Shown here one piece after another: positions 27,686 through 44,710 of a DNA stretch of 44,710 nucleotides. Every line of letters begins with the position of its first letter. Within the stretch, counting starts at the first letter, position 1. Source of the stretch: a virus; the IMG/VR virus record IMGVR_UViG_3300037419_000655, positions 1-44,710 of that record; one strand, given 5' to 3'. The notes beneath the pieces were generated by a model. It was not told where the DNA came from. It saw only the letters and a program-made list of their open reading frames with translations, and did not search any database. The position numbers were made by a program, and so were the translations under genes.

Positions 27686-28159
27686 GTGACCACGATTGCG
27701 TACTCGGCAGGCACGATGGCCGCCGATACGCAGGTCTCCGCAGGCGGGCGCAAGTTCCGCACGCACAAGGTCAAGCGCCTGAAGTGCGGCGGGCTGATCG
27801 GCTCCAGCGGCAAGCTGGCCGACATCCTGAAGATCCAGCGGTGGGCCGAGGCGGGCTTCCCCGAGGCTGACAAGCCGGACTTCGGCGACGAGGGCGAGTT
27901 CGAGTGCCTGATCGTCACCGGGGCGGGCGACGTGTACCTCTTGGACGAGGACATGGAGCTGATGCCCTTCATGGATGCCTTCATCGCGGTCGGGTCCGGT
28001 GGCCCGTATGCGATGGCGGCGATGGAGTGCGGCCGGAATCCGGCCGAGGCGGTGGCGGTGGCGGCGAAGTTCGACGCCAACACGTCCGAGCCGGTCGAGG
28101 TGTTTCGCGTGGAACCGAAGGAGGCTCCGCGTGGACGACGACGCGCTCGCCGAGCTTGA
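27686..28159 (+). CDS. HslV / proteasome-beta-like Ntn-hydrolase peptidase, 157 aa (GTG start)
   Basis: V-TTIAYSAG places Thr right after the initiator. HKVKRL, LIVTGAGDV and IAVGSGGPYAMAA parallel E. coli HslV TTIVSV, KKVRRL, LIITGNGDV and IAIGSGGPYAQAA. Confidence 0.8.
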   Translation: MTTIAYSAGTMAADTQVSAGGRKFRTHKVKRLKCGGLIGSSGKLADILKIQRWAEAGFPEADKPDFGDEGEFECLIVTGAGDVYLLDEDMELMPFMDAFIAVGSGGPYAMAAMECGRNPAEAVAVAAKFDANTSEPVEVFRVEPKEAPRGRRRARRA

Positions 28160-28334
28160 TCTGGCCGCGATGGACCTGCTGCGCTGCTACGAACGGTTGG
28201 GCGTCGCGGCCATTGTCGTGACGTACCCCGGCGAGGCCATTTTCGTGCGCTGCCAGAACGCAGGCGACGTGGTGCCGCTGTGCAAACGGGTGATCGAAGA
28301 ACACGCAGCGCCGGCCGACCGGACGCTGAATTAG
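28131..28334 (+). CDS. Hypothetical protein, 67 aa (GTG start), overlapping the HslV-like 3' end by 29 nt
   Basis: An AAGGAGG RBS lies just upstream of the GTG. Reads VDDDALAELDLAAMDLLRCYERLGVAAIVV... Confidence 0.45.
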   Translation: MDDDALAELDLAAMDLLRCYERLGVAAIVVTYPGEAIFVRCQNAGDVVPLCKRVIEEHAAPADRTLN

Positions 28335-28360
28335 GCGCTTGCGCCAACAGGGGTAAGCGC

Positions 28361-28543
28361 GTGAAAGACGTAGGCAAGGACTTGGCGCTCGCTACGCCTG
28401 GAATAGGCGTGGCGGCGACGGGGATCATGGGATTCCCGTGGTCGCAACTGAGCTACATGCTCGCGGCGATCTACACGTTCCTGCTGATCTGCAAGTTCGT
28501 GTGGGACCGGGTGAAGGGATGGCAGGCCAAGCGCCGCGCCTAA
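28361..28543 (+). CDS. Holin candidate (two TM segments, basic C-terminus), 60 aa (GTG start)
   Basis: LALATPGIGVAATGIMGFPW and LSYMLAAIYTFLLICKFVW are followed by DRVKGWQAKRRA. Lies immediately upstream of, and overlapping, the endolysin. Confidence 0.6.
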   Translation: MKDVGKDLALATPGIGVAATGIMGFPWSQLSYMLAAIYTFLLICKFVWDRVKGWQAKRRA

Positions 28544-28986
28544 GCCCGAAAGCCGCAGGTGCCGTCCTGGCGCTGGCGGCGGGCATCGTGGCGATGTGGG
28601 AGGGCTACCGGCCCATCCCGTACCGCGACGTGATCGGCGTCCCCACGGTCTGCTACGGCCACGCACATGACGTACAGGACCGCACGTACACGCGGGCCGA
28701 GTGCAAGGCGCTGCTGGAAGGCGATCTGGCGCAAGCCTACGCCACGGTGCGGCGCTGCATCACGTGGCCGCTCAAGGATTACGAAGCGGCGGCCCTGACG
28801 AGCGCCACGTACAACATCGGGCCTCGTGTGGTCTGCGGCTCCACGCTGCAAACGCTGGCGAACCAGGGCGACATGACCGGGGCGTGCAACCAGCTCATGC
28901 GCTGGAATCGTGCCGGTGGTCGGGAAGTTCTGGGCCTGACGCGACGCCGCGCGGCCGAGCGTGCGATGTGCTTGGGGGAAACATGA
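28519..28986 (+). CDS. SAR-type endolysin, GH24 (T4/P21 lysozyme family), 155 aa
   Basis: The weakly hydrophobic N-terminus AAGAVLALAAGIVAMW precedes the catalytic EGYRPIPYRDVIGVPTVCYGH (E-x8-D-x5-T). Confidence 0.85.
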   Translation: MAGQAPRLSPKAAGAVLALAAGIVAMWEGYRPIPYRDVIGVPTVCYGHAHDVQDRTYTRAECKALLEGDLAQAYATVRRCITWPLKDYEAAALTSATYNIGPRVVCGSTLQTLANQGDMTGACNQLMRWNRAGGREVLGLTRRRAAERAMCLGET

Positions 28987-29102
28987 AACGCATCGCCTTC
29001 TGGCTGTCGTGGATGTGCGCGGTGCTGGCCTTCCGGCTGGCGCATTACGCGAAGGACGGCGTGGGCGAGGCGGACGAGTACAAGGTGGGCGGGACGGACT
29101 GA
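28983..29102 (+). CDS. Hydrophobic micro-protein, 39 aa
   Basis: ATGA overlap with the endolysin stop. Reads MKRIAFWLSWMCAVLAFRLAHYAK... Confidence 0.4.
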   Translation: MKRIAFWLSWMCAVLAFRLAHYAKDGVGEADEYKVGGTD

Positions 29103-29281
29103 TGACGCTGTTTCTTGTTGGACTTGCCTGCCTCATCGTCGGTAGCTGGCTGGGGATTGCGCTTGCGCGATTCCATAAGCCTATTCGCGCATGGCGGGAA
29201 CGCATATGGCGATTGGCCCTGTATGGCGACCCGCGCGAGGAGTTGTGTGCCTTCATTCGTGGCGATCGTGACGCCCGATGA
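29102..29281 (+). CDS. Small membrane protein, 59 aa
   Basis: The start shares a base with the upstream TGA. Reads MTLFLVGLACLIVGSWLGIALARF... Confidence 0.45.
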   Translation: MTLFLVGLACLIVGSWLGIALARFHKPIRAWRERIWRLALYGDPREELCAFIRGDRDAR

Positions 29282-29379
29282 CTGAGATTCGCCCGCTACA
29301 GGCTCCGGCCTTTCAGCCATTCGCTCGCAACCTGCTAACGGTCGCGATCTGCGGCGCGTTGTATGGCGTGTTCGCATGA
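29278..29379 (+). CDS. Possible micro-protein, 33 aa
   Basis: ATGA overlaps at both ends and a hydrophobic C-terminus LLTVAICGALYGVFA. Third-position G/C bias is only moderate. Confidence 0.3.
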   Translation: MTEIRPLQAPAFQPFARNLLTVAICGALYGVFA

Positions 29380-29507
29380 CCCCTAACAAGCGCGCCACCC
29401 TGCTGACCGCCTTGGTCGCCGTGATCGGCGCGGGCTTGGTCGTGTGGCACCTGATGACAGGTGGCGAGTGGGCGCAGTTGCTGGCGGCGATCTGGCCGCG
29501 TTCGTAA
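29376..29507 (+). CDS. Small membrane protein, 43 aa
   Basis: ATGA overlap. Reads MTPNKRATLLTALVAVIGAGLVVWHL..., with high G/C at third positions. Confidence 0.4.
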   Translation: MTPNKRATLLTALVAVIGAGLVVWHLMTGGEWAQLLAAIWPRS

Positions 29508-29515
29508 AAGTCCGT

Positions 29516-29544
29516 GGTGTCAGCAAGACCGTGTAGCTGGCACC
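29516..29544 (+). other. Stable hairpin in the 162-nt non-coding spacer
   Basis: GGTGTCAGC-aagaccgtgta-GCTGGCACC gives 9 bp including one G-U pair. Confidence 0.4.
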
Positions 29545-29629
29545 TCCACCAACCCCGAAGTACGCGAAGGCCGAAAAGGGGTGCTGCACGTACCGGGTTA
29601 GGGACTCGGGCGGATACGGTCATATACGA

Positions 29630-29655
29630 GGCTCGCTTCGGCGGGCCTTTTGTTT
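29630..29655 (+). terminator. Intrinsic terminator inside the lysis region
   Basis: GGCTCGC-ttcg-GCGGGCC followed by TTTTGTTT. Confidence 0.65.
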
Positions 29656-29669
29656 CTGAGGGCACGACA

Positions 29670-30200
29670 ATGAAGCTGGCCGCACTCCTGGCGCTGGTTC
29701 TCTCCGGGTGTGGCTGCGTGTCATTGCCCGTTCCCGATGTCCACCTGACGACCCATCGCTTGGACATGGCCGGCGGCATCTGCTCGGGCACGGCGATCGC
29801 GGACAACAAGCTGCTGACCGCCTACCACTGCAAGGCCCTTGGCGGCCCGCTGGTGAAGGTGGATGGCTGGGAGGTCGCCCCGGAGTCCTACTCCGGCAAC
29901 GAGGACCACGACACGTTGGTCATCACGCTGCCCGGCCATCCGTTCACGCATTGGGCGCGCATTGGGGCGCGACCGAAGCAAGGTGATCGCGTGCGGTGGT
30001 GGGGCAATCCCGAAGGGGAGCAGGACGTGTATCGGCAGGGCTACGTCGCCAAGGTGACGGACAGCGCCATCATCGTGGACGCCACGATCTGCCATGGGGA
30101 CTCGGGCAGCGGCCTGATGAACGACGCAGGCGAAGTGGTGGGTGTGGTGAGCGCCATGAGTGACGAAAACGGCTGCACGTTCCTGCTGGCGCACGGATGA
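29670..30200 (+). CDS. Lipoprotein trypsin-like (S1/chymotrypsin-fold) serine protease, 176 aa
   Basis: Signal peptide with the lipobox MKLAALLALVLSGC. His motif TAYHC, Asp in EDHDTLVI, and Ser motif CHGDSGSGL. Confidence 0.8.
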   Translation: MKLAALLALVLSGCGCVSLPVPDVHLTTHRLDMAGGICSGTAIADNKLLTAYHCKALGGPLVKVDGWEVAPESYSGNEDHDTLVITLPGHPFTHWARIGARPKQGDRVRWWGNPEGEQDVYRQGYVAKVTDSAIIVDATICHGDSGSGLMNDAGEVVGVVSAMSDENGCTFLLAHG

Positions 30201-30541
30201 AACTGCTGGACGCGGTTGTCCCGTATTGGTTCTGGATCAAATGGGGAGCGGTCCTGATCGCCTTGGCGCTGCTGGTGCGCTGGCTGGTCGGTATGGGCTA
30301 TGACCACTGCGAGCTGGAGCACTTCAAGGCGCAGGACGCGCTGATCCAGCAGGCCGCCACGCGCGCCGCTGTAACCGACAAGAAACTGGCCGAGGCGCTG
30401 CGCAAGCTGCCGCCCACGGGCCACCGCGTAAGCGAGGCGGTCCATGCGCATCCGACAAGCCCTGACTGCCGCGTGCCTGACGCCGTTGCTGATGAGTTGC
30501 AGGACGGTATCCGTGCCGGTGCGGCCAACACCGCCCCCTGA
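30197..30541 (+). CDS. Rz: i-spanin (Rz-like), 114 aa
   Basis: ATGA overlap. N-terminal TM WFWIKWGAVLIALALLVRWLV, then a helical periplasmic part. The downstream lipoprotein gene overlaps it. Confidence 0.7.
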   Translation: MKLLDAVVPYWFWIKWGAVLIALALLVRWLVGMGYDHCELEHFKAQDALIQQAATRAAVTDKKLAEALRKLPPTGHRVSEAVHAHPTSPDCRVPDAVADELQDGIRAGAANTAP

Positions 30542-30689
30542 TGCCTCGCAGCTCTGCGAACGGCTACAGGACGTGCGTCGCGGCATGACGCTGGACGACC
30601 TGCTCCAGTGGGCGGGCGTGACGATCGAGCAATACAACCGATGCGCAGCGCGGCACAAGGCGCTGAGTGATTGGGCGAGGGGTAAGTGA
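30444..30689 (+). CDS. Rz1: o-spanin (Rz1-like lipoprotein), 81 aa
   Basis: Lipobox LTPLLMSC and a Pro-rich mature N-terminus. Starts inside the Rz frame and extends beyond it (overlapped architecture). Confidence 0.75.
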   Translation: MRIRQALTAACLTPLLMSCRTVSVPVRPTPPPDASQLCERLQDVRRGMTLDDLLQWAGVTIEQYNRCAARHKALSDWARGK

Positions 30690-30790
30690 GCATTCGCCGG
30701 CTGCCCGATTGGCCCGTGCTGTTCTGGCGCTGGTTCTGTGACGAATACGACTACGACCAGTCTCCCGACTGGCGTTGGAGTGGTGTGTAG
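30686..30790 (+). CDS. Possible Trp-rich micro-ORF, 34 aa (GTG start)
   Basis: GTGA overlap with the Rz1 stop. Its TAG shares a base with the GTG of the beta-helix gene. Reads VSIRRLPDWPVLFWRWFCDEYDYDQSPDWRWSGV. Confidence 0.3.
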   Translation: MSIRRLPDWPVLFWRWFCDEYDYDQSPDWRWSGV

Positions 30791-31899
30791 TGGCCGACAC
30801 GAAAGACCTTCTGGCGCAGGCATCGGCGGCGCTGGATGCGGAGCGTGTTGCTTCGCAGGCAACGATTGACGCCCTGAAGGCAACGAACGACAGCCTGAGC
30901 GCGGCGAATGTGCAGCTCCAGGCGCAGCTCGACACCGCCAACGCGACGATTGCCGGCCTCAAGGCTGCCAGCGATCCGTGGGCTGCGGTGGACAAGACCG
31001 GCGCGACGGACGTGACGGACAAGGTGCAGGCCCTGTGGAACAAGGGTCTGCCCATGCCAGCGGGCACGTACCTGCTGGATGCGGTGAAGGGGCTGACGGT
31101 CTCGACGGCCGTCAAGCTGGACCCGCAGACCGTTCTCAAGATCAAGCCGAACGATGCGGCGCGCTACTGCCTCGTCACCGTACTGGCGGGTGGTTCGATC
31201 GACGGCGGCCAGATCTTGGGCGACCGCGATACACATGCCTACTCGACCACCGGCACCGATGAGTGGGGCTATGGCCTCCACCTCAAGGGCAACGGGGCGA
31301 AGGCCAGCAACGTCCAAATCAGCCGCTGCACGGGCGATGGCTGGATCGTGAGCGGCGACAACGTGGAGGCGCGCAACATCGTCTCGACGGGGAATCGCCG
31401 CCAAGGGTGCAGCGTGTTTGCCTGCACGGGCTTTCGGGCCTACGACTGCGTATCCAGTGACACCGCAGGCGCGCCGAATGGGCCGTGTGCGGGATGGGAC
31501 TTCGAGCCGGACAGCGGAAGCATCACGGATGCCCGCCTGGAGCGGTGCATCGCACGGAACAACCGTGCTGGGTTCCTTGGCTGGGTGCGCTCCAACGTGA
31601 CGGGCAATGTGGACGTGACGCTGGTGGACTGCATCACGGACAACAACGCAAACGGAATGCAGGCCCACGGCTACAACGGCAAGGTCAGCATCAAGGTGCA
31701 GGGCGGCACGCACACCAACCGCAGCTCCGGTTGTCGGGTTGAAGCGGGATCGACCTTTGCGGTGGACGGCTGCACGTTTGCGTTCACGGGCAAGGACCGC
31801 ACGGACTTCACCGTGACCGGGCAGGACAGCCGCACCAAGTACGACATCTATGTCCTCACCGGGGGCAAGGCGGTCGTGGGGACGAATACGTACACGTGA
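30790..31899 (+). CDS. Coiled-coil + right-handed beta-helix (pectate-lyase-superfamily, depolymerase/tailspike-like) protein, 369 aa
   Basis: GTG at 30790, with GGAG 9 nt upstream (the ORF track uses TTG at 30775). N-terminal heptads, then AVDKTGATDVTDKVQALW...GTYLL and STGNRRQGCSV...GWDFEPDSG, paralogous to the hub C-terminus. Confidence 0.8.
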   Translation: MADTKDLLAQASAALDAERVASQATIDALKATNDSLSAANVQLQAQLDTANATIAGLKAASDPWAAVDKTGATDVTDKVQALWNKGLPMPAGTYLLDAVKGLTVSTAVKLDPQTVLKIKPNDAARYCLVTVLAGGSIDGGQILGDRDTHAYSTTGTDEWGYGLHLKGNGAKASNVQISRCTGDGWIVSGDNVEARNIVSTGNRRQGCSVFACTGFRAYDCVSSDTAGAPNGPCAGWDFEPDSGSITDARLERCIARNNRAGFLGWVRSNVTGNVDVTLVDCITDNNANGMQAHGYNGKVSIKVQGGTHTNRSSGCRVEAGSTFAVDGCTFAFTGKDRTDFTVTGQDSRTKYDIYVLTGGKAVVGTNTYT

Positions 31900-31975
31900 G
31901 CAAGGGCAGCAACCGACGCCGAGAGGATCGCCCAGGCGGTCGAGGCGAATTGGGCTGGCATCAACTGGAATAGCC

Positions 31976-32305
31976 GTGAGCCGCAAGCTGCTAACGCTGA
32001 AGCCCCGGGTACTGACAGCGGAGCCAAGGCTCCAGACGGTGAACCCGAACAGTTGGCGGGACGGCAAGACCACGGCTGAGCGTGGGTATGGAGCGAGATG
32101 GCAGCGGGCCAGGCTGCGCTTCCTCGCCAAGCATCCGCTCTGTGTGATGTGTGAGGCTGAGGATAGGGTCGGCGCTGCGACGGTCGTTGATCACATCAAG
32201 CCGCATCGTGGGGACATGGTGCTGTTCTGGGATGAGGCGAACTGGCAGCCGTTGTGCGCCAATCACCACTCCTCGGACAAGGCGAAGGCGGAAGCCGAGG
32301 GGTAG
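31976..32305 (+). CDS. Terminase-associated HNH endonuclease, 109 aa (GTG start)
   Basis: GYGARWQRARLRFLAKHPLCVMCE...VVDHIKPHRGD...NWQPLCANHH. Lies immediately upstream of TerS/TerL, as in HK97-like cos phages. Confidence 0.85.
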   Translation: MSRKLLTLKPRVLTAEPRLQTVNPNSWRDGKTTAERGYGARWQRARLRFLAKHPLCVMCEAEDRVGAATVVDHIKPHRGDMVLFWDEANWQPLCANHHSSDKAKAEAEG

Positions 32306-32403: not shown

Positions 32404-32745
32404 ATGGCACGAGGCGGCTATCGGCCTGGTGCTGGGCGTCCACCGGGCTCAGGCAAGGGCCAAAACGAAGGCTCGATTCACGATGAGGGCGCGGCCGAGC
32501 CGTGTGCGGCTGACCTTGAGCCTGTCGAGCGCACGCCGCTCGAATACATGCTCGCGGTGATGAACGACACGACGGCCGATGCGGCGCGTCGTGACCGCAT
32601 GGCGATTGCTGCTGCCCCGTTCGTCCACGGGAAAATCCCCGAGGGCGGCAAGAAGGAGCAGGCGAAGGGCGCGGCCAGGGCTGTGGCGGCCGAGGGCAAG
32701 TTCCGCCCCGGCGAGCCGCCCAAGTTGTCGGTGGTCCAGAAGTAG
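32404..32745 (+). CDS. terS: Terminase small subunit, 113 aa
   Basis: Position between HNH and TerL. The segment TPLEYMLAVMNDTTADAARRDRMAIAAAPFVH is typical of HK97/P27-type small subunits. Confidence 0.7.
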   Translation: MARGGYRPGAGRPPGSGKGQNEGSIHDEGAAEPCAADLEPVERTPLEYMLAVMNDTTADAARRDRMAIAAAPFVHGKIPEGGKKEQAKGAARAVAAEGKFRPGEPPKLSVVQK

Positions 32746-32748
32746 CGC

Positions 32749-34458
32749 ATGGAGTGGACGACAGCCTGCCCCGATTGGGAGAGCAGGCTGATCGAGGGGC
32801 GGTCCATCATCCCGCCTCCGATCTTCCCGGAGCAGGCCGAGCAAGCTCTAGCGATCTTCAAGCAGTTGCGCGTTGTCGATCTGCCCAAGACGGTATGGGA
32901 TGAGGCGCTAGGGGGATATCGGAGCCCCAACTTCGGCGAGTGCGCCGAGCAGTGGGTGTTCGATTTCGTCGCGGCCATCTTTGGCGCGTACGACGCGGAG
33001 ACGGGCAACCAGCTCATCCGCGAGTTCTACCTGCTCATCAGCAAGAAGAACACGAAGTCCACCATCGCGGCCGGCATCATGCTGACGGCGGTGATCTTGT
33101 GCTGGCGCAACGACGAGGAGCATCTGATCCTCGCGCCGACCAAGGAAGTGGCGGACAACAGCTTCAAGCCGGCCGCTGGCATGGTTCGCGCCGACGACGA
33201 CCTGCTCGCGCTGTTCCATATCCAGGACCATCTGCGAACGATCACCCACCGGGAGACGAATGCGTCCCTGAAGGTGGTCGCGGCGGACACCGAGACGGTA
33301 TCGGGCAAGAAGTCCGGGCGCGTGCTGGTGGACGAGCATTGGGTGTTCGGCAAGCGCGCGAACGCCGAGGCGATGTTCATGGAGGCGTTGGGCGGCCAAG
33401 TGTCGCGCAACGAGGGTTGGGTGATCTACCTGACCACGCAGTCCGACGAGCCGCCCGCGGGCGTCCTCAAGGACAAGCTGTCGTATTTCCGCGATGTCCG
33501 GGACGGAAAGATCCAGGACCGCAAGTCCCTCGGGGTGCTGTACGAGTTCCCCGAGCGGATGCTGAAGGACAAGTCCTACCTAGACCCGGCCAACTTTTAC
33601 ATCACCAACCCGAACATCGGGAAGTCGGTGAGTGCGGAGTGGCTGTCGGACCAGCTCGTCAAGCAGCAATCCAAGACGGACGGCTCGCTACAGCAGTTCC
33701 TTGCGAAGCATCTCAACGTCGAAATCGGCCTAAACCTTCGGACCGACCGATGGGCGGGTGCGGACTTTTGGGAGGACGCAGGCGACAAGTCGATCACCCT
33801 CGACTACATCCTCGCGAACTGCGACGTGGTGGTGCCGGGGATCGACGGTGGCGGCCTGGACGACCTGTTGGGGCTGTCCTTGCTGGGCCGCGAGATGGGC
33901 ACCGGGCGCTGGCTCCACTGGGGCCATGCGTGGGCTCACAAGATCGCCTTGGAACGCCGCAAGGATATCGCGCCCCGCCTGCTGGACTTCCAGCAGGAAG
34001 GCGACCTGACGATTGTGGAGCGTCCGGGGCAGGACGTTGCGGAGGTGGCGGATTTTGTCTGCCGCGTGCGTGACGCTGGACTGCTCGCGGCCAAGCACCC
34101 CATCGGGGTGGACGCGGCCGGCATTGGCGACATCGTGGACGAGCTGTTGTCGCGCGGCTTTCAGGTCGAGGACATCACGGCGGTTCAACAGGGATGGCGC
34201 TTGAACGGCGCGATCAAAACCACCGAGCGCAAGGTCGCGGGTGGCGAGTTCGCGCACGGGGCGAGTCCGCTCATGGCCTGGTGCGTCAGCAACGCCCGCA
34301 TCGAGGACAAGGGCAACGCCATCTCGATCACGAAGCAGGCTTCCGGCAAGGCAAAGATCGACCCGCTCATGGCGGTGTTTAGCTCCGTTTCGCTGATGGC
34401 GCTCAATCCAGCGCCCGCGCGGAACCCCTACGAATCCCGAGGAATCCGGACACTGTGA
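32749..34458 (+). CDS. terL: Terminase large subunit, 569 aa
   Basis: Size, position and HK97-type Terminase_1 features, including a Walker-like region and the nuclease C-terminus (...GKAKIDPLMA). Confidence 0.9.
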   Translation: MEWTTACPDWESRLIEGRSIIPPPIFPEQAEQALAIFKQLRVVDLPKTVWDEALGGYRSPNFGECAEQWVFDFVAAIFGAYDAETGNQLIREFYLLISKKNTKSTIAAGIMLTAVILCWRNDEEHLILAPTKEVADNSFKPAAGMVRADDDLLALFHIQDHLRTITHRETNASLKVVAADTETVSGKKSGRVLVDEHWVFGKRANAEAMFMEALGGQVSRNEGWVIYLTTQSDEPPAGVLKDKLSYFRDVRDGKIQDRKSLGVLYEFPERMLKDKSYLDPANFYITNPNIGKSVSAEWLSDQLVKQQSKTDGSLQQFLAKHLNVEIGLNLRTDRWAGADFWEDAGDKSITLDYILANCDVVVPGIDGGGLDDLLGLSLLGREMGTGRWLHWGHAWAHKIALERRKDIAPRLLDFQQEGDLTIVERPGQDVAEVADFVCRVRDAGLLAAKHPIGVDAAGIGDIVDELLSRGFQVEDITAVQQGWRLNGAIKTTERKVAGGEFAHGASPLMAWCVSNARIEDKGNAISITKQASGKAKIDPLMAVFSSVSLMALNPAPARNPYESRGIRTL

Positions 34459-36505: not shown

Positions 36506-36558
36506 GGGCGGACGCCCCAGCTAAACGCCAACGGCGGACGCCTGAGGCAATCAACCAA

Positions 36559-36581
36559 GCCGCCGAGAGGCGGTTTTTTTG
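36559..36581 (+). terminator. Short intrinsic terminator between the protease and capsid genes
   Basis: CCGCC-gaga-GGCGG followed by TTTTTTT. Confidence 0.55.
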
Positions 36582-36615
36582 TGCCCGAAAGGGCGTCCAA
36601 CTGAGACAACCCCAA

Positions 36616-37800
36616 ATGATCGACAACAAGCTGCTGGCCGAACGCGGCCAGTGCATCGAAGCCATGCGCGCATTGCTGAACCGCGCCGAGGCAGAAGGCC
36701 GCGATCTGTCGGCCGACGAGCAGGCCGAGTACGGCCGCCACGAAGCCCGTCAGACCGAGATCGGCAACCTCGCCAAGCGCGCCGAGAAGTTCGGCCAGCT
36801 CGACGCGGAAGTGGGCCAGGCGGTGAACACCGTCACCAAGCTCGCCGTCGCGGCGGATGGCCGCAAGGACTTCCGCAACAGCGCCGAATACAAGGAAGCC
36901 CTCGATGTCGTGCTGCGCCGTGGTTCGGCGGGCATTCTCGACCCGCGCATCCACAACGCCCTTCAGGTCGGCACCAACTCCGAGGGCGGCTATGTCGTCC
37001 CGCAGGAGTTCGAGACGACCCTGCTGGAAGCCCTCCAGGACATCAATGAGATCCGCAACTACGTCTCGGTGATCTCGACGGCCTCGCAGCACCACATCCC
37101 GGTCGAATCGACGCTCGGTTCAGCGGCGTGGACGGCGGAAGAAGCGGCCTACAACGAGTCCGATGCGGCGTTCAACCGCGTCACGCTGAACGACTACAAG
37201 GCCACCACGATCATCAAGGTGTCCGAGGAGCTGCTCCGCGATTCGTTCTTCGACATGCAGGGCTACCTGGCCCGCAACTTCGGCAAGCGGTTCGGCATCC
37301 TTGAGGAAGCCGCGTTCGTCAACGGCGACGGCTCGGCCAAACCGACCGGCATCGTGCCGGGCGCGTCGCTGGGCAAGACCGCTGCGGGCACCGCCGCGAT
37401 CACCACGGACGAACTGATCGACCTGTATCACTCGCTGAATCGTCCGTACCGTAAGAACGCGGTGTGGATGATGGCCGATGGCACCGCCAAGCTGATCCGC
37501 AAGCTGAAGGACACCACCAACCAGTACCTCTGGCAGCCGGGCCTTGTGGCCGGTCAGCCGGACACGCTGCTGGGTCGTCCGGTCATCGTGTCCAACTCGA
37601 TGCCGGCCGCGACCACGGGCCTGAAGTCGGTGGTGTTCGGTGACCTGTCGTACTACACGGTCGCCGACCGTCAGGGCGTCACCGTACAGCGTCTGAACGA
37701 GCTGTACGCCGCCACCGGCCAGGTGGGCTTCCGCGCCTTCAAGCGCACCGACGGCAAGGTCACGCTGTCGGAAGCCATCAAGTACCTGATCCAGGCGTAA
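36616..37800 (+). CDS. Major capsid protein, HK97 fold with an N-terminal delta (scaffold) domain, 394 aa
   Basis: Helical about 100-aa N-terminus, then the HK97-type core (...GGYVVPQEFETTLLEAL...). No separate scaffold gene is present. Confidence 0.9.
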   Translation: MIDNKLLAERGQCIEAMRALLNRAEAEGRDLSADEQAEYGRHEARQTEIGNLAKRAEKFGQLDAEVGQAVNTVTKLAVAADGRKDFRNSAEYKEALDVVLRRGSAGILDPRIHNALQVGTNSEGGYVVPQEFETTLLEALQDINEIRNYVSVISTASQHHIPVESTLGSAAWTAEEAAYNESDAAFNRVTLNDYKATTIIKVSEELLRDSFFDMQGYLARNFGKRFGILEEAAFVNGDGSAKPTGIVPGASLGKTAAGTAAITTDELIDLYHSLNRPYRKNAVWMMADGTAKLIRKLKDTTNQYLWQPGLVAGQPDTLLGRPVIVSNSMPAATTGLKSVVFGDLSYYTVADRQGVTVQRLNELYAATGQVGFRAFKRTDGKVTLSEAIKYLIQA

Positions 37801-37807
37801 GACCTCG

Positions 37808-37840
37808 GCGGGGTCGGGCTTCGGCTCGGCCCCGCTTTTT
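37808..37840 (+). terminator. Strong intrinsic terminator after the capsid gene
   Basis: GCGGGGTCGGGC-ttcg-GCTCGGCCCCGC gives 12 bp including two G-U pairs, followed by TTTTT. Confidence 0.8.
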
Positions 37841-38021: not shown

Positions 38022-38605
38022 TCCTTTCCCGCGTCACCGCGCCTGTCGCGACGCCTGTCTCTCTGACCGAGGCCAAGGCGCACCTGCGCGTCACCGGCAC
38101 CGATGAGGACACGACGATCCAGATGTACCTCGACGCAGCCGTCGCCCATGTGGACGGCGCGGAGGGCTTGCTGGGGCGCTGTCTCGTGACGCAGGAGTGG
38201 GACTACACGATCAACCGCTTCCCGTGCCGCGTGCCGCATCACCCCGGGCGCACTTGGAACGCAATCGACGTGCCGTTGCCGACGCTACAGAGCGTCACCA
38301 GCGTGAAGTATTACGACCCGGACGGTGTGCAGCAGACGATGGACCCGGCCGGCTACATCGCCAGCGGGCAGCAGATCGTGCCTGTGGACGCATGGCCGGA
38401 CTACGACACCACGCGCCCCGGCGCGGTCACGGTGCGGTTCACGGCCGGCTACGGCAACGCGACGGCGGTGCCTGCGGCAATCAAGGCCGCGATCCTGCTC
38501 TACATCGGCGACCTGTACGCCAACCGCGAGGCGCAGGGCGAGCAACTGTTTGCCAATGACGCGGCGCGCCGCCTGCTCGCCCCATTCCGGAAGGTGCGGG
38601 TGTGA
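38018..38605 (+). CDS. Head-tail connector (gp6-like) protein, 195 aa
   Basis: PVSLTEAKAHLRVTGTDEDTTIQMYLDAAVAHVDG is the typical Phage_connect_1 N-terminus. Confidence 0.8.
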   Translation: MILSRVTAPVATPVSLTEAKAHLRVTGTDEDTTIQMYLDAAVAHVDGAEGLLGRCLVTQEWDYTINRFPCRVPHHPGRTWNAIDVPLPTLQSVTSVKYYDPDGVQQTMDPAGYIASGQQIVPVDAWPDYDTTRPGAVTVRFTAGYGNATAVPAAIKAAILLYIGDLYANREAQGEQLFANDAARRLLAPFRKVRV

Positions 38606-38931
38606 AGGCGGGTTCGCTGCGGTCCTACATCACGCTCCAGACGCGCGACAGCGGCACGGACGACGCCGGCCAGCCGATACAGACGTGGACGACGCTCGCC
38701 ACGGTATGGGCGGACATCCGCGGCGCGAACGGGCTGAACACCATCAAGGCGTCGCTGGATGGCGTGGAGATCAACGCCTACAGCTTCCGCATCCGGTATC
38801 GCACGGACGTGGATGCCGCCAAACGCGTGGTGTACGGCGGCCAGAACTACGACGTGAAGCAGGTGCGGCACGACTTCGCGCGGAAGGAGTGGACGGATCT
38901 CATTTGCGAGGTCGGCGGCAATGACGGTTAG
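38602..38931 (+). CDS. Head closure / head-tail adaptor protein, 109 aa (GTG start)
   Basis: GTGA overlap. MKAGSLRSYITLQTR...W...VWADIRG follows the head-tail joining family pattern. Confidence 0.7.
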   Translation: MKAGSLRSYITLQTRDSGTDDAGQPIQTWTTLATVWADIRGANGLNTIKASLDGVEINAYSFRIRYRTDVDAAKRVVYGGQNYDVKQVRHDFARKEWTDLICEVGGNDG

Positions 38932-39400
38932 CGCCAAGCTCGACGTGTCCGGCTGGACGAAGGCGCTGGACAAGTTGGCCGGCGAGAAGCGCGTCAGCCT
39001 CGCCCGCTCCATGTGCGTGGCGGGCGGCGAAGTCCTGCGCGACGAGGCCAAGTTGCTGGCTCCGGTCAAGGACGGCGTGCTGAAGGACGCGATCTACCTC
39101 GCCTACAAGGACGCGCTGTCGGGCGAGTCGCGGCAGGTGTATTCGGTGAGCTGGAATCACCGCAAGGCTCCACACGGCCACCTGATCGAGTTCGGCCACT
39201 GGCAGCCCTACAAGGTCGTCAAGTTGCCAAACGGTGACTGGTTCACCACCAAGGAAAAGCTGCCGAGTCCGAAATGGATCTCGGCCAAGCCGTTCCTGCG
39301 GCCGGCCTACGACATCGCGAAAGAGCGCGCCGTGCAGGCCATGATCGAGCGCGGCAAGCAGCGCCTGCCGGAATTGCTGGGAGAAGACAGTGGGGATTGA
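38921..39400 (+). CDS. HK97 gp10-like neck / tail-completion protein, 159 aa
   Basis: HGHLIEFGH motif and position after the adaptor. Confidence 0.75.
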   Translation: MTVSAKLDVSGWTKALDKLAGEKRVSLARSMCVAGGEVLRDEAKLLAPVKDGVLKDAIYLAYKDALSGESRQVYSVSWNHRKAPHGHLIEFGHWQPYKVVKLPNGDWFTTKEKLPSPKWISAKPFLRPAYDIAKERAVQAMIERGKQRLPELLGEDSGD

Positions 39401-39740
39401 GGCCAGCATCAAGACGGCGCTGGCGTCGATTGCGGGCGGGCGCGTGTATCCCGACACGCCACCGGACAACCCGACGTTCCCGTGCATCGTGTACCAGCAA
39501 GTCGGCGGCGATGTCATCAACCCGCTGGAATGCACCGACCCGAACCTCGACAACGCCCGCATCCAAGTATGGGTGTGGGCAAAGACGCGCCTGGAAGCGT
39601 CCAGCGTCATGCGTCAGGTCCGCATCGCGCTGACAGGATCGCTGAAAGCCTATGCGCTCGGCGCTCCGGTATCCGATTACGTTGAAGAATTGAAGAACTA
39701 CGGCAGCCGTACCGATTTCAGCATCTGGTACGCGCCATAA
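39390..39740 (+). CDS. DUF3168-like tail terminator / completion protein, 116 aa (GTG start)
   Basis: IKTALASIAGGRVYPDTPPDNPTFPCIVYQQVGG matches the family N-terminus. It is the last gene before the major tail protein. Confidence 0.7.
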   Translation: MGIEASIKTALASIAGGRVYPDTPPDNPTFPCIVYQQVGGDVINPLECTDPNLDNARIQVWVWAKTRLEASSVMRQVRIALTGSLKAYALGAPVSDYVEELKNYGSRTDFSIWYAP

Positions 39741-39810
39741 GAAATGTCCCTACGGCGCGCCTAGCAAGGCGTGGCGACACCTGTGTGCGACGGGCAGCGG
39801 GGCGAGGCAA

Positions 39811-39906
39811 CCGGTGAAGGACGCGGGCGGTACCGCCCAAAGTCCCTGACGGGTCCGGTGAAGGCTAATGGCGGCGAGGATCAATCGCCGCTCATGCCCT
39901 GACGGG
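39811..39906 (+). repeat. Two tandem hairpin modules with conserved flanks (39811-39853 and 39855-39906)
   Basis: Each module is CCGGTGAAGG + imperfect GC hairpin + CCCTGACGGG. The hairpins are GGAC..GGGCG-gtac-CGCCC..GTCC and GGC..GGCGGCGA-ggatcaa-TCGCCGC..GCC. Confidence 0.45.
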
Positions 39907-39936
39907 CTGGGCTAACTACTGTCGCAGCTATTTCGA

Positions 39937-39966
39937 GGCCCGCCATTGCGCGGGCCTTCTCGTTTC
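39937..39966 (+). terminator. Intrinsic terminator-like hairpin inside the tail operon
   Basis: GGCCCGC-cattgc-GCGGGCC followed by TTCTCGTTTC. Confidence 0.55.
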
Positions 39967-40115
39967 AAGCCCCGACTAGCCCTCGTCGTGAGACGCGCGA
40001 AATCGGGCACCTGTTTGGCCCCGGTCTGCGGACCCGTGCCAACCCGCAATCGGAATACGCGATTCCGAGCAGACCGCCGTGAGGCGGCCTTTCCCATCGA
40101 GATGGAACAACACAA

Positions 40116-40763
40116 ATGGCATACACGATCGCGAATGGCTCGACCATTCATATCGGCTCGGCGGTCGGCTCTTCGCTGACTGTCACCGTTGCTACGAACG
40201 CCTCCCCGTGCGTGATGACCTCGACGGCCCACGGCCTGTCGAACGGCGACTACATCATCGTGACCTCGGGCTGGTCCCGCGTCACCGACAAGGTGTGGCG
40301 CGTCGCCAACGTCACCGCCAACACGTTCGAGCTGGAAGGCAGCAACACCAGCGACACGACCGTCTACGCGGCCGGTTCGGGCACGGGCTCGGTCAAGAAG
40401 GTCACGACCTGGACCCAGCTCACGCAGGTGCTGTCGGTCAGCTCACAGGGTGGCGAACAGCAGTACGCGACCTATCAGCCGCTGGAAGGCGACCGCGAAG
40501 TCCGCATCCCGACCGTCAAGAGCGGCGGCGGCCTCGACATCGAGGTTGGCGACGACCCGACGCTCGCGGGCTTCCAGGCGTTCATGACCGCCAACGACGC
40601 GCGCACCGCCTATGCGGTCCGCATCACGGCGGCCAATAGCGGCAAGTCGCTGTTCTACAGCTACATCTCGGCCGACAAGGTGCCGCAGATGAACGTCAAC
40701 GACGTGCAGAAAGCGCGCATCTCGCTGTCGCATCTGAACGAAGCCGTGCGCTACGCGACCTAA
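40116..40763 (+). CDS. Major tail (tube) protein, 215 aa
   Basis: Position before the chaperone/frameshift pair and the tape measure. Gly/Ser/Thr/Val-rich beta-type sequence. Confidence 0.8.
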   Translation: MAYTIANGSTIHIGSAVGSSLTVTVATNASPCVMTSTAHGLSNGDYIIVTSGWSRVTDKVWRVANVTANTFELEGSNTSDTTVYAAGSGTGSVKKVTTWTQLTQVLSVSSQGGEQQYATYQPLEGDREVRIPTVKSGGGLDIEVGDDPTLAGFQAFMTANDARTAYAVRITAANSGKSLFYSYISADKVPQMNVNDVQKARISLSHLNEAVRYAT

Positions 40764-40769
40764 TGGACC

Positions 40770-40803
40770 GGGGAGGCCCGGTGCATTGGGCCTCCCCTTT
40801 TCC
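40770..40803 (+). terminator. Strong intrinsic terminator after the major tail gene
   Basis: GGGGAGGCCC-ggtgcatt-GGGCCTCCCC followed by TTTTCC. Confidence 0.8.
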
Positions 40804-40818
40804 TGAAGGAGCAACACG

Positions 40819-41127
40819 ATGTTCAAGATTCAAGCCAACCCCACCATTGACGCGAAGCTGACCCTCATCGGTCAGGGCCGTGAACAGGTGTTGGAGTTGA
40901 CGTTCAAGCATTCCACCCGATCCGATTACCTTCAGTTGCTGTCGGATGTGCGCGAGGAAAAGCGCAAGCCCGAAGACGCGCTGGCGAGCCTGATCGAGAA
41001 GTGGAACGCCGATATGACCGTCTCGGCTGATGCAATGAAGGCGCTGGACGAACACCAGCCCGGCGCGCTCATGGCGATCCTCAATGCCTACGGTGACGCC
41101 TTGCTGGTATCGCGCAAGGGAAACTGA
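40819..41127 (+). CDS. Tail assembly chaperone (gpG-like), 102 aa
   Basis: GAAGGAG RBS. Lies between the major tail protein and the tape measure, and ends just after the slippery site. Confidence 0.8.
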   Translation: MFKIQANPTIDAKLTLIGQGREQVLELTFKHSTRSDYLQLLSDVREEKRKPEDALASLIEKWNADMTVSADAMKALDEHQPGALMAILNAYGDALLVSRKGN

Positions 41128-41474
41128 TCGGCAGCGCCCGCGTCCTCCGCGACGGACTTCCGACGCCGGAGGACTTGGAGCAAGCGGGCCTCGCGCCCGA
41201 GGACTGCACGACGCCCAACGAGGACGGCGTGTATTACGACCTCGGCGACAAAGCGTGGCGCTGCCAGATATGGGAAGAAAACTGGCCCGCGCTCAGTTTG
41301 TACCTGCGACTGCATACGCAGTGGCGCGTCGGCTTCAGCGGTGCCGTAGGACTGGATTACAACGTCCTGTTCCACGAATTGGACCGGATGCACCTCGACC
41401 CCGATGACTACGACGACCTGTTCGGGTCCGTCCGCGTGATCGAAGAAACGATGCTGAACCCCAAGCCCGCCTAG
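40819..41474 (+). CDS. Tail assembly chaperone frameshift product (gpGT-like; 40819-41124 joined to 41124-41474), about 218 aa
   Basis: The -1 frame continues [23 protein letters not shown]...[34 protein letters not shown], which resembles the DUF1799 TAC extension. Confidence 0.7.
41118..41124 (+). promoter_or_regulatory. -1 programmed frameshift slippery heptamer G GGA AAC
   Basis: In the G frame the codons read AAG GGA AAC TGA. The -1 frame is open from here to 41474. Confidence 0.75.
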
Positions 41475-41493
41475 TGCGGGCTTTTTCCTTTTT
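41463..41493 (+). terminator. Intrinsic terminator between the chaperone and tape-measure genes
   Basis: AAGCCCGC-ctagt-GCGGGCTT followed by TTTCCTTTTT. Confidence 0.65.
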
Positions 41494-41502
41494 GAGAGTC
41501 CC

Positions 41503-44500
41503 ATGACCGAAGAAAGCATCGGCACTGCCCGCCTAGATCTGGTGGCGGACACGTCCGAGTTTGTCGTCGGCGTGGAGGCTGCCAAGAAAGCGACGGCTGA
41601 CCTTGGACGTGCGACGCAACAGTCCGCCAAGGTCGCGGCCGATGGCATTGCCAAGACCAACGCGGCGGCCCGGAGTACGGCCGATGCGATTCGCGGTTCG
41701 GCCAACGCGGTCGAACAGAACACGCGACGCCAAATCAATTCGCTCGAAAAGCTGGCCCGTACATACGGGCTGACCCGTGAGGAGCAGATCCGTTACCGGA
41801 TCGAAACGCAGACCACGGGCGACGTACAGAAGCGCCTGCTGGCGATCTTTGACCAGCAGGTCGCGAAAGTTAACAGCAGCGGCCGCGCGCTCGATGCCTA
41901 TGGCATGAGCGCCAAGCAGACCGCCGCTGCCTTGCGCGGAGTCCCGGCACAGCTCACTGACATCTTCACCGGCCTTGCCACCGGCCAGCGTCCGATCAAC
42001 ATCCTGCTCCAGCAGGGCGGTCAGTTGAAGGACATGTTCGGCGGCATCGTGCCGGCCATCCGTGCCGTTGGTGGCGCTGTTGCGGGCCTCATCAACCCGT
42101 TCACCCTGGCGGCGGCAGCGGTCATCGGGCTGGGAGTGGCGTGGAACAAGGCCAACGACGAAGCCGAGGCGTTCAACAAGGCGCTCATCCTGTCGGGCAA
42201 TGCAGCAGGCCTGACACGCCAGCAGTTGGAAGGTGTCGCGGCCTCGATTGCGAACACGACCGACGCCACGCAGGGCAAGGTGTCCGAGGCGCTGGCGCAG
42301 GTGGCGGCGTCCGGGCAGTTCACCGCCAAGCAGATGCAGATGGTCGCGCAGGCGGCCGTCGAAATGCAGCAGGCGACCGGCCAGTCGATCGAAAAGACGG
42401 TGCAGGACTTCGCCTCGCTCAAGGGCGATCCGCTCGACGGCATCCTCAAGCTCAACGACGCGATTGGTGACGGCACCAACGTCGTCCGCTTCCTGACGCA
42501 AGCCCAGGCCGAGGAAATCGCCAAGCTCAAGGAGCAGGGCGACACCGCAGGGGCCACGGACCTGGCGTTCAAGGCGCTGTTCGATGGCATCAACTCGCGC
42601 GCTCCACAGGCTGCGCAACAGATGTCGCTGCTCGGCGGCGTGCTGCACACCATTTCGGTCGAGGCCAAGCAAGACCTCGACGCCATCGTCGGGTTCTTCC
42701 GGGGTGCGGACGAAGGCATCCGTAGCTTCATCCTCACCCACGAGAAGATGTTGCGGTCGGTAGGCAATGTGGCGGCGGCTTTGCCGGGCAACATCTTCGG
42801 CAACGCGCAGTTGGATGTCCTCAATTCGACCATTGACGCCGCCAAGCGCGCGTCCCGCCCGACCTTCTCCAATGTCACGGACGGGAGCGGCGCGGCGGAC
42901 GCCTCCAAGATTCACGCCCGCGAAGAAGCGCAGCAGGAATTTGACCGGCTCGCCCTGAGCAACCTCAGCAAGCGCGAGAAGCTCGAAAACGAGATCAAGG
43001 ACATCCGCGAGAAGGGGCTCGCGGCGGGCAAGTCCCAGCTTGCCATCGAGACGGCCGTGGCCAACGCCCGAGCCCGCTACGCCGAAAGCCAGAAGAAAGG
43101 CAACTCCGGCGCGGGCATTGAATCGGCCACGTCAAAGAATGCCATCCAGGCGTTCGAGGACCAGCTCAAGAAAGAACAGGGGCTGATCGCCAACCAGACG
43201 CAGGTGCTGGAGGCGAACTACGCCGCCCGCAACATCACGGTGGCCGCCTATTACAAGGAACAGAAGCGCCTCGCCCAAGAAAACACCGACGTGCAGGTCA
43301 AGGCGCTGGAGGGGGAGATCGCCGCGCTCAACGCCCGAAACGTCAAGGGCAAGGTGTCCATCGAGAACGCGACGCAGATCGCGCAGAAGGAAGCCGAGCT
43401 TGCCAAGGTCCGCGCCGATGGCGCAACCAAGCTGGAAGTCCTGAACATTCAGGAGGCCGCGCAACTCAAGCAGCGCCAGCAGTTGCTGACCTCCTACAAC
43501 GACGCACTGAAGCAGACTGAGGACACGCTCAAGGACGAGCTGGACAACCAAGTCCTCCGCATCTCGATGGGCGAGCGCGAGTTCGAGATGCGCTCGCGGA
43601 TCAACCAGATCCTGCGGCAGCAGTCGAAGGAATTGCTGGACTTGGCCCGCGCTCGCGACGCCGATCCGGCCAACGCCGACCTGTACGACAAGCAGGCCGC
43701 CGCACTGGAAGCCTCCGTGCAGCGCCAGGTGCAGGCCGTGCGCGACGGCTACAAGGCCATGTCAGAGGCGCAGGCGAACTGGTCGAACGGCGCGATCAAG
43801 GCGTTCACCGACTACGCGGACGCCGCCAACGACGTGGCGGGACAGACCTACGGCATCTTCTCGGATGCCCTGCATGGTCTGGAGGATGTCTTCGTTGACT
43901 TCTTCACCAAGGGCAAGGCGGACTGGAAGGGCTTTTTTGACGGCATCGCGGCCGAGATCACCCGGTTCGTGGTCCGTCAGCAACTGAGCAAGCTCGCGCA
44001 GAAGTTCCTGCCGGGCCTGACGGGCGATCAGGGCGATTCCTCGGCCAGCGCCCTGTCCGGTGCAGCGGGGCAGCTCGCGGCGTCCGCGACGCCGTTGTAT
44101 GGCGCGGCGGCGGCCCTGAGCGCGTCTGCGTCCGCCTTGGCTGCGGCCGGTGGCGCTCAGGGCATCAGCGGCGGTGCCACCACGGGCGGCAGCGGCGGTT
44201 GGATCGATGCGCTGTTCTCCCTGTTCTCCAGCGGTGGCGGCGAGCAGTGGTACGCCAACGGCGGCGCGTTCTCGCGAGGGCAAGAAGTCCAAGCGTTCGC
44301 CTATGGCGGCGTCGTCTCCAGTCCGACCAATTTCGGCATGTCCGGTGGCCGCCTCGGATTGATGGGCGAGGCGGGCCCCGAAGCCATCCTGCCATTGCAT
44401 CGCGGTCCTGACGGAAAGCTCGGCGTGCGGATGGAAGCGGCGAACGAGCCGCAGCGCACCGGCCCGACCGTCGTCCAGCAGACGGTCCTCGTGCAGGGCC

Positions 44501-44580
44501 GCATCGACTCCCGCACCGCTTCCCAATTCGCGCAGGCGACCGCCCGCGAACAGAACCGCGCGTCCTCCCGGAATCGCTAA
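41503..44580 (+). CDS. Tail tape measure protein (lambda-family C-terminus), 1025 aa
   Basis: Long helical protein after the G/GT pair. The C-terminus ...[44 protein letters not shown] is the lambda-type TMP signature. Confidence 0.95.
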
Positions 44581-44583
44581 CCC

Positions 44584-44710
44584 ATGACGATCATCGCGAC
44601 CCGCCTCTCCGCGAAGGTAGAGGCGGGGTTCTCGGCTGTCGTGGGCTTTTCCACGCGCGTGGTCGAGCTGAAAACCGGCTACGAGCGCCGCAACGCCAAC
44701 TGGCTCAATC
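44584..44710 (+). CDS. 5' part of the distal tail protein gene (continues as 1-584 after circularisation)
   Basis: ATG at 44584 sits 3 nt after the tape-measure stop and reads MTIIATRLSAKVEAGFSAVVGFSTRVVELKTGYERRNANWLN, in frame with ORF 48-584 through the duplicated segment. Confidence 0.75.
   Translation, partial: MTIIATRLSAKVEAGFSAVVGFSTRVVELKTGYERRNANWLN
44594..44710. repeat. Terminal overlap, copy 2 (identical to 1-117)
   Basis: Same 117 nt as the window start, consistent with a circularised contig. Confidence 0.95.

Follow-up and report, generated by a model that had tools for sequence, protein, structure and literature searches.

The siphovirus genome of IMG/VR record IMGVR_UViG_3300037419_000655 (44,710 nt, ~64% G+C, analysed over its whole length and called the window below) carries, between its tail terminator and major tail protein genes, an accessory structured RNA element that is described in no library searched here. 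The element lies on the + strand at positions 39741-39966 (Part A) and consists of two tandem modules, each built around the same invariant internal loop, which are enclosed by a closing helix and followed by a predicted intrinsic terminator. Its structure, strand, conservation and modular make-up are evident from a comparison of the 12 copies that we collected, and it is an optional cassette, present in some relatives of the phage and replaced or missing in others. The sequence behind it (39967-40115, Part B) is a structured leader of the major tail gene that all close relatives keep. We regard the element as a structured RNA motif that is new but generally familiar in kind, and that is known so far from metagenomic phage contigs only.

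A gap composed of two units

The gap between the stop codon of the tail terminator gene (39738-39740) and the ATG of the major tail gene (40116) measures 375 nt and is the largest of the late operon, in which the remaining gaps do not exceed 110 nt. An earlier note on this DNA, made from the letters alone, had described it as a non-coding island with two tandem hairpin modules, a terminator-like hairpin and a second small hairpin ahead of the ribosome binding site, and these elements of the description stand. The gap holds short Arg/Pro-rich open reading frames (ORFs) only. The two modules first recognised (39811-39853 and 39855-39906) have identical 10-nt flanks, CCGGTGAAGG and CCCTGACGGG, and the pattern CCGGTGAAGG-N(10-40)-CCCTGACGGG is matched twice, against 0.00 matches expected in 100 shuffles. 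As the note had remarked, the helices of the modules differ in sequence and keep their pairing, the inner segments of both folding as hairpins. The terminator-like hairpin (39935-39959) is followed by a U-rich tail (39960-39966), and the small hairpin is CCGCC-GUGA-GGCGG at 40074-40087. Since the conserved flank copies lie 44 nt apart and fall in different reading frames, coding conservation is unlikely to explain them.

Two parts of the description had to be revised. The operon had been taken as uniformly tight, yet four smaller gaps (36506-36615, 37801-37838, 40764-40818 and 41475-41502) each contain a strong intrinsic terminator. Nor is the gap a single island: it divides into the optional cassette and the constitutive leader, because in one near-identical phage the cassette site is empty, in others it holds different inserts, and the leader is kept throughout.

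Architecture of the cassette

The cassette was segmented by comparing its 12 copies, which represent about eight divergent lineages and were found among relatives gathered via the tail terminator protein, homologues of the major tail protein and the DNA pattern (loci are cited below by our own L numbers). Its parts are as follows.

39741-39786, + strand: S5, the variable 5' region of the cassette, with a local hairpin at 39754-39775, defined from the segmentation of the 12 copies and from folds
39787-39793, + strand: 5' strand of the closing helix P1 (GCGACGG), pairing with 39919-39925; 7 pairs, 4 of them compensatory
39794-39805, + strand: J1, the unpaired 5' side of an asymmetric loop between P1 and P1a; 7-14 nt long, sequence variable
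39806-39808, + strand: 5' strand (GGC) of P1a, a tentative 3-bp helix closing a three-way junction, pairing with GCU at 39911-39913
39811-39852, + strand: module M1, with outer stem CCG (39811-39813) / CGG (39850-39852)
39814-39818 and 39846-39849, + strand: invariant internal loop of M1, GUGAA / CUGA; the inner hairpin between them (39819-39845) is variable
39853-39907, + strand: module M2, with outer stem GUCCG (39853-39857) / CGGGC (39903-39907)
39858-39862 and 39899-39902, + strand: invariant internal loop of M2, GUGAA / CUGA; inner hairpin at 39863-39898
39878-39884, + strand: terminal loop of M2, GGAUCAA, identified by comparison with relatives
39908-39925, + strand: 3' side of the junction, comprising UGG (39908-39910), the 3' strand of P1a (GCU, 39911-39913), the A-rich J3 (39914-39918) and the 3' strand of P1 (CUGUCGC, 39919-39925)
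39926-39934, + strand: U-rich, semi-conserved spacer between P1 and the terminator (AGCUAUUUC)
39935-39966, + strand: predicted intrinsic terminator at the 3' end of the cassette, with hairpin GAGGCCCGC-CAUUGC-GCGGGCCUUC (39935-39959) and tail UCGUUUC (39960-39966)

The core of the element begins at P1; S5 lies outside it because it is not conserved between variants, and it is just 7 nt long in L143 and L211. Within the core, the outer stem of M1 (3 bp) is followed by that of M2 (5 bp) with 0 nt in between. The internal loop 5'-GUGAA-3' / 5'-CUGA-3' that follows each outer stem is invariant in 24 of 24 modules of the 12 copies, and beyond it the inner helix opens with GG/CC and runs on into a variable hairpin of 10-52 nt. 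On the 3' side, J3 is UAGGCCAAA-like in four variants and the spacer is CUAUUUCC-like in most.

The terminal loop of M2 shows an unusual change. GGAUCAA in the window is the exact reverse complement of UUGAUCC, the loop found in its nearest relatives (L003, L005, L006 and L007) as well as in the distant variants L196 and L208. The flipped loop, on a stem that is kept, is common to the window and L132-L134, three contigs apparently from the same phage as the window (their tail terminator protein is 99% identical). Two further pairings were considered and set aside: an outer helix P0 (GAAAU/AUUUC), which appears in the minimum-energy fold of the window and is not conserved in relatives, and a pairing of J1 with the spacer, which is available in three or four variants only and is topologically incompatible with P1.

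Covariation and strand

The helices of the element share essentially no sequence between lineages, and the letters of the loops are unchanged. P1 takes the forms GCGACAG/CUGUCGC, ACGGCAG/CUGCCGU, GAGGCAG/CUGUCUC and GACCAG/CUGGUC across copies. The outer stem of M2 is found as GUCCG/CGGGC, GAACG/CGUUC, GUGCG/CGCAC, GAUCG/CGAUC, GGUGG/CCACC and GAUAG/CUAUC, with three to four pair types at three positions and zero mispairs. In M1 both the outer stem (ACG/CGU in L200) and the inner helix (GGAC/GUCC, GGAU/AUCC, and GU../..AC in L208) covary, and the register of the inner helix, which leaves a 5-by-4 loop, is fixed by L208, where G10-C1' becomes U-A. The tentative P1a occurs as GGC/GCC, GGC/GCU and GUC/GAC, giving one compensatory pair and zero mispairs; it was not predicted by RNAalifold on a plain MAFFT alignment.

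To quantify these changes, pairs were counted in a hand-curated alignment of the 11 distinct copies, with variable hairpin tips N-padded. In this alignment 98.2% of 275 cells were paired and 13 of the 25 pairs had changed on both sides, compared with three compensatory pairs at most in slid controls. The covariation score was 0.421, against no more than 0.057 when the partners were slid by 1-3 columns, and none of 500 shuffles reached the observed values. When RNAalifold was given the real sequences in a plain MAFFT alignment, it recovered P1 and, for M1 as well as M2, both the outer and the inner stem (22 pairs, 12 of them compensatory). G-U pairs occur in the M2 outer stem, P1a and P1; on the opposite strand they would become A-C mismatches, and we therefore assign the element to the + strand, the only one on which they work. 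The core of what the earlier note suggested, a structured RNA in the gap, is strongly supported, on the + strand, by covariation in about eight divergent relatives.

A mosaic site among relatives

The junction between the tail terminator and major tail genes is a hot spot at which accessory inserts of several kinds are found. The window type, L143, L211, L207, L209, L200, L196 and L208 carry versions of the two-module element. In the near-identical phage L142, the site is empty: both element and terminator are missing, and the stop codon is directly followed by TTTAAGCCGCGCC..., which equals the window sequence from 39967. L136-L138 have instead a small ORF of ~69 aa at the site (~3346-3555), which overlaps the upstream stop codon as ATGA. 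A different insert of ~110-130 nt stands there in L141 (585-700) and L195 (2276-2385), closed by a long covarying stem (AACGCACGACGACG/CGTCGTCGTGCGTT vs AACGCACGGCAGCG/CGCTGCCGTGCGTT) and containing, besides a short U-tail, the conserved core AGCGAGCGGGTGACTGCCCAAGTCCCGCCG; this insert may be a further accessory RNA. L214 and L145 carry a plain strong terminator and no two-module RNA. Gaps are short in the more distant relatives L206 (111 nt), L213 (101 nt) and L214 (64 nt), and the element is missing from the cultured relatives Bcep176, PS-1 and Aval, whose gaps measure 56, 94 and 80 nt respectively. All close relatives have Part B, and only some of them share Part A.

Searches beyond the site

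To see whether the element belongs to a known family, we scanned the whole window against Rfam 15, as the earlier note had advised; no family reached its gathering threshold. Sub-threshold noise alone was seen in 39600-40250 at E-values up to 10, and nothing matched the element in nine relatives at E-values up to 5. A search for tRNA and tmRNA genes found none, and a literature text search for the two motifs returned nothing relevant.

A covariance model (R1) built from the collected copies detected one copy in the window at 135 bits, with the next best match at 14 bits. Applied to 30 loci found with a relaxed pattern, R1 added nothing new save a contig already in the set, and it had no match in the HK022 early region or the Bcep176 structural region. 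Each of the 12 copies is the only one in its genome, and all share one site and one orientation.

When the genomes of 185,579 species were searched with the single-module pattern, at least 120 isolated chance matches in coding sequence were obtained, and none of the genomes among the matches listed had more than one copy. With junction and tandem patterns, the viral and metagenome contigs yielded only the known phage family, chance coding matches and one unrelated repeat. The idea that the modules are captured repetitive extragenic palindrome (REP) repeats of the host, also raised in the earlier note, is not supported by these results, the copies keeping one site and orientation (12 of 12) and showing no dispersal among the matches listed.

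Two sets of pattern matches deserve a comment of their own. Among the matches listed in the species' genomes, 47 loci (L016-L131) are the 58-nt CCGGTGAAGG-N38-CCCTGACGGG in the Walker-A region of secA (GEGKTLVATLPAYLNALTG) of very diverse bacteria; 20 specified bases can evidently recur in a highly conserved gene. The unrelated repeat (L163-L185, metagenome JGI24699J35502) is a dispersed sequence of ~200 nt with many copies in both orientations in an AT-rich organism. Built on the palindrome GTCCCTGACGGGAC / GTCCCGTCAGGGAC, it is a chance match to the pattern and looks like a family of REP or miniature inverted-repeat transposable elements (MITEs).

Terminator and transcription

The predicted terminator at the 3' end of the cassette has a GC-rich stem of 9-10 bp (-18 kcal/mol), followed by the U-rich tail, and by these sequence features would qualify as an intrinsic terminator; a simple terminator scan skipped 39935-39966 because its T-run is interrupted. 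In 12 of 12 copies a covarying hairpin with a U-rich tail stands 9-11 nt past P1, and its homologue in L207 is canonical (GCCCGCC-TAGT-GCGGGC, then TTTTT). L207 also has a 46-aa ORF (2204-2344) between the cassette terminator and the leader, from which we conclude that the element travels with the terminator and not with the leader of the major tail gene. The L207 terminator (2157-2185, AAGCCCGCCTAGTGCGGGCTTTTTC) is identical to the window terminator at 41463-41493, and terminator hairpins may be points at which modules are joined by recombination.

No sigma-70-like promoter was found in 38500-41500 in a scan of the sigma-70 type only. In L143 and L211 the 7 nt between the stop codon and P1 leave no room for a promoter. 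Given these two points, it is most likely that the late transcript includes the element. A sigma-54-like motif, GGGCACCTGTTTGGCC at 40005-40020 (GG-N10-GC spacing), was rejected: it falls in a covarying stem, its GG is lost in relatives (GCGCAC), and it probably arose by chance. Two features of a moron, an independent transcription unit within a late operon, are seen in the cassette, namely a predicted terminator of its own and presence or absence among relatives; a third, a promoter of the sigma-70 type, was not found.

Possible functions

We tentatively favour the view that the cassette yields a stable protein-binding RNA end-module. The late transcript would carry the element, and the structured domain together with the terminator hairpin would form a discrete, nuclease-resistant module at an RNA 3' end, in effect an RNA derived from the 3' untranslated region (UTR) of the tail terminator gene. 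The two identical internal loops could then provide a binding platform for two copies of a protein or for a dimer, and the bound protein, encoded by host or phage, might be sequestered as by a decoy or held on the RNA as on a scaffold. The stability of the RNA and its binding of protein are steps that we infer. The 3' UTR-derived small RNAs of bacteria offer a parallel, as they too lie between a stop codon and an intrinsic terminator, with no promoter of their own found and a U-rich spacer by the terminator. They usually expose a single-stranded seed and bind Hfq, however, whereas the element is almost fully structured and has its conserved residues in internal loops.

Several points weigh against this reading. 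The discrete RNA and termination at 39960-39966 are sequence-based predictions, the binding protein is hypothetical, and no gene of the window was linked to the element. The internal loop could not be matched to a known protein-binding motif. It resembles the kink-turn of box C/D RNAs (C box RUGAUGA, D box CUGA): the loop is likewise asymmetric, has an exact CUGA as its 3' strand and GUGAAG as its 5' strand, and could form tandem sheared G-A pairs (G6-A6', A7-G5') beside a stem closed by G-C. The kink-turn nevertheless fails on bulge length and helix register, for the bulge would be 2 nt (GU) instead of 3, and the register required (G9-C3', G10-C2') is contradicted by the double change in M1 of L208, in which G10-C1' is kept as U-A. 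The proteins scanned near the element included none of the L7Ae type and none with a Nop domain, and guide segments are absent. As to the covariation, the pair counts come from an alignment that was fitted by hand to the model, although the placement of the M1 and M2 stems has no freedom in it because they abut invariant motifs, and the copies stand for just about eight independent lineages. Finally, the near-perfect palindromes of the inner hairpins and the inverted M2 loop point to template switching at quasi-palindromes on the DNA level, a process by which paired changes in local hairpins can arise without selection on RNA. Template switching does not easily explain P1, the M2 outer stem (strands 45-130 nt apart in these long-range helices) or the invariant loops.

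A broader claim, which we consider rather doubtful, is that the element founds a new class of RNA. It would be either a protein-binding RNA whose GUGAA/CUGA loops capture a dimeric host factor late (e.g. a defence, RNA-decay or transcription protein) or a protein-independent RNA that reprograms RNA polymerase mid-operon, and in either case an accessory 'RNA moron' spread by recombination among siphophages of the Burkholderiales type.

The alternative that survives best, although we think it unlikely, is a cis-acting read-through gate, in which the two-hairpin RNA loads a factor onto RNA polymerase (nutR-like) or binds the polymerase itself (put-like), so that the polymerase passes the terminators at 39935-39966, 40770-40803 and 41463-41493 and transcription into the tail genes is set. 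The co-occurrence or joint absence of element and terminator is what such a device would show, and strong terminators do follow downstream. In phage lambda the order is cro, nutR, tR1, with nutR between cro and tR1. The cassette matches it in layout: a stop codon, a structured RNA recognition element, an intrinsic terminator and then the next genes. Unlike nutR, the element has neither a boxA-like sequence nor a boxB-type pentaloop hairpin, it sits in a late structural operon, and no N-like or Q-like protein was recognised among the genes between 22227 and 32745. The put RNA of HK022, a protein-independent processive antiterminator (putL/putR) of ~70 nt with two stem-loops, binds the zinc-binding domain of the RNA polymerase beta' subunit and suppresses terminators (PMC9378689). 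Like the element it is a cis-transcribed phage RNA with two adjacent stem-loops, almost no linker and functionally important non-helical regions, and it lies upstream of terminators (PMC9378689). It differs in lying just downstream of early promoters, at operon starts, in having no closing helix and in being known from lambdoid phages of enterobacteria, whereas the modules of the element alone span ~97 nt, are framed by P1 and P1a, contain two identical loops, and stand mid-operon as an optional insert with no promoter-like site nearby. R1 found nothing above 8.8 bits in HK022 22000-32000, a result that is indicative only, as that record does not annotate the put sites. Further points against a gate are two strong terminators upstream in the same operon (36559-36580 and 37808-37840), the plain terminators of L145 and L214 at the same site, and near-identical phages that live without the cassette (L142). 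A general antitermination mechanism must already exist, given the upstream terminators and the plain ones of L145 and L214, and read-through cannot depend on the element alone, because four other strong terminators of the operon come without such an RNA. It is for these reasons that we prefer a protein-binding end-module to a gate: terminators upstream do without such an RNA, relatives have a bare terminator or nothing at the site, and the cassette is dispensable.

A less likely role again is in the processing or stability of mRNA, with host RNases cutting or trimming the domain so as to separate the head and neck message from the major tail message and protect the upstream 3' end. The highly expressed genes for capsid and tail each have strong hairpins on both sides, and the leader downstream likewise consists of several covarying hairpins in a row, both of which suit such a role. 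There is precedent as well, since RNase III sites lie between T7 genes and lambda sib acts for int; the T7 sites are hairpins with conserved asymmetric internal loops. The outer stems of 3 and 5 bp, however, are too short for a usual RNase III substrate, a plain terminator hairpin suffices elsewhere in the operon and in L145 and L214, and two invariant loops, a closing helix and a junction exceed what the protection of an end needs.

A tandem-aptamer riboswitch, in which each internal loop binds a small ligand and formation of P1 controls the adjacent terminator, is improbable. The earlier note had entertained a riboswitch-like leader, and the covarying, aptamer-like helices of that idea remain: a domain of several helices is enclosed by P1, its conserved nucleotides are concentrated in loops and junctions, and a terminator follows 9-11 nt behind. 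The glycine and NAD+-I riboswitches come to mind, which share with the element tandem similar domains, conserved loops with variable helices, and a close terminator. The regulatory half of the idea fares worse. No consistent alternative partner for the 5' half of the terminator emerged from co-transcriptional folds of nine variants, so that no riboswitch-type expression platform is evident, and, unlike the tandem riboswitches, the element has no switchable alternative structure, no Rfam match at permissive E-values (in the gap of the window and in nine relatives) and a setting among structural genes. In L207 a different gene stands behind the terminator and separates the element from the leader of the tail gene, and a metabolite switch between structural genes that is absent in close relatives has no obvious rationale.

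Least probable of all is a DNA-level or selfish element without RNA function, whether a captured repeat of the REP or MITE kind or a quasi-palindrome hot spot (for template switching or for recognition of folded single-stranded DNA): the palindromes of the inner hairpins are nearly perfect right up to the tip (GGGCGGTACCGCCC, CCCCTGCGCAGGGG, GGGCTAGCCC), the M2 loop of the window is inverted relative to relatives, the site is a mosaic hot spot at which four or more alternative inserts occur, and REP and bacterial interspersed mosaic elements likewise have short conserved flanks around imperfect GC-rich palindromes, but the element is single-copy at a fixed site and orientation, a direct tandem inside a covarying long-range helix, with no dispersed copies in viral and metagenome scans or among the genome matches listed, with G-U pairs in its long-range helices that are valid on one strand only, and with loops that stay invariant across lineages whose helices share no sequence.

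Other systems were compared and rejected. A TIGR-Tas array has regular 36-nt units, alternating edge and loop repeats and 9-nt spacers, and lies beside a gene for a Nop-domain protein (PMC12045711); here there are just two units, their variable parts are paired helices instead of spacers, and the neighbouring gene products have no Nop domain. IS110 bridge RNA, type III toxin-antitoxin repeats, integron attC, Y RNA and hammerhead or hairpin ribozymes were excluded on architecture and/or sequence.

The leader of the major tail gene

Part B is found in all close relatives, with or without Part A, and RNAalifold on 11 variants gives four hairpins with 32 pairs, of which 11 are compensatory. Its features are the following.

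39967-40115, + strand: Part B, the constitutive structured leader of the major tail gene
39969-40008, + strand: hairpin H1, with inner CGUC-GUGA-GACG at 39984-39995 and a GNRA loop (GUGA or GAGA)
40017-40040, + strand: hairpin H2, deleted in three variants
40050-40068, + strand: hairpin H3, UCGGAAU/AUUCCGA in some copies and UCGCAG/CUGCGA in others
40074-40087, + strand: hairpin H4, CCGCC-GUGA-GGCGG with a GUGA loop, invariant
40099-40107, + strand: ribosome binding site GAGAUGGAA

On the predicted folds, the leader most likely stabilises the highly expressed major tail message or tunes its translation.

Genomic setting

The tape measure gene ends near the end of the window and tail genes resume at its start (1-6100, with 41503-44710 at the other end), and for this reason the window looks like a complete, circularly permuted genome of ~44.7 kb. 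Judged from its closest relatives, the siphovirus is probably temperate. Its large terminase is nearest to those of the Burkholderia phages Bcep176 and phiBt and of a Bordetella phage (66-70% identity), and by this affinity the host probably belongs to the Burkholderiales.

The late operon runs on the + strand from the terminase (32404-34458) through portal, protease and major capsid (36616-37800) genes, an adaptor and neck genes, and on through the tail terminator (39390-39740), major tail protein (40116-40763), chaperone and tape measure (41503-44580) genes. The features that bear on the cassette are these.

36559-36580 and 37808-37840: strong intrinsic terminators of the late operon, before and after the capsid gene
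39390-39740, + strand: tail terminator gene (PF11367, phrog_347); the cassette begins directly past its stop codon
40116-40763, + strand: major tail protein gene (PF08813, phrog_584), with a strong terminator behind it at 40770-40803
40770-40803 and 41463-41493: strong intrinsic terminators of the late operon, after the major tail protein gene and after the chaperone genes

Because strong terminators bracket the capsid and tail genes, late transcription must be segmented or else have a general resistance to terminators. Comparison of the genes between 22227 and 32745 with PHROGs and Pfam revealed no recognisable antiterminator of the Q or N type. That interval includes NinB-like and RusA-like genes (22227-24215) and, beside the terminase, a gene for an HNH endonuclease (31850-32305). 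A stable hairpin (-27 kcal/mol) at 41138-41178 stands between the tail-chaperone ORFs 40819-41127 and 41175-41474; the two ORFs overlap in relatives such as L196, and the usual frameshift arrangement of the chaperones may differ in the window.

Significance

To our knowledge, structured RNAs within the structural operons of phages have rarely been described, and almost none has a known role. The comparative support for the present element is unusually clean for so few sequences, as its helices are wholly rewritten between lineages and two identical loops are kept. Near-identical phages with and without the cassette form a natural control, so that its function is directly testable. The late operon of this lineage is full of strong terminators around its capsid and tail genes, which raises the question of how late transcription passes them. 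Should the cassette prove to control read-through of terminators, it would be a new mid-operon antitermination device; if instead a host or phage protein proves to be its binding partner, the moron concept would be extended to an accessory gene made of RNA only.

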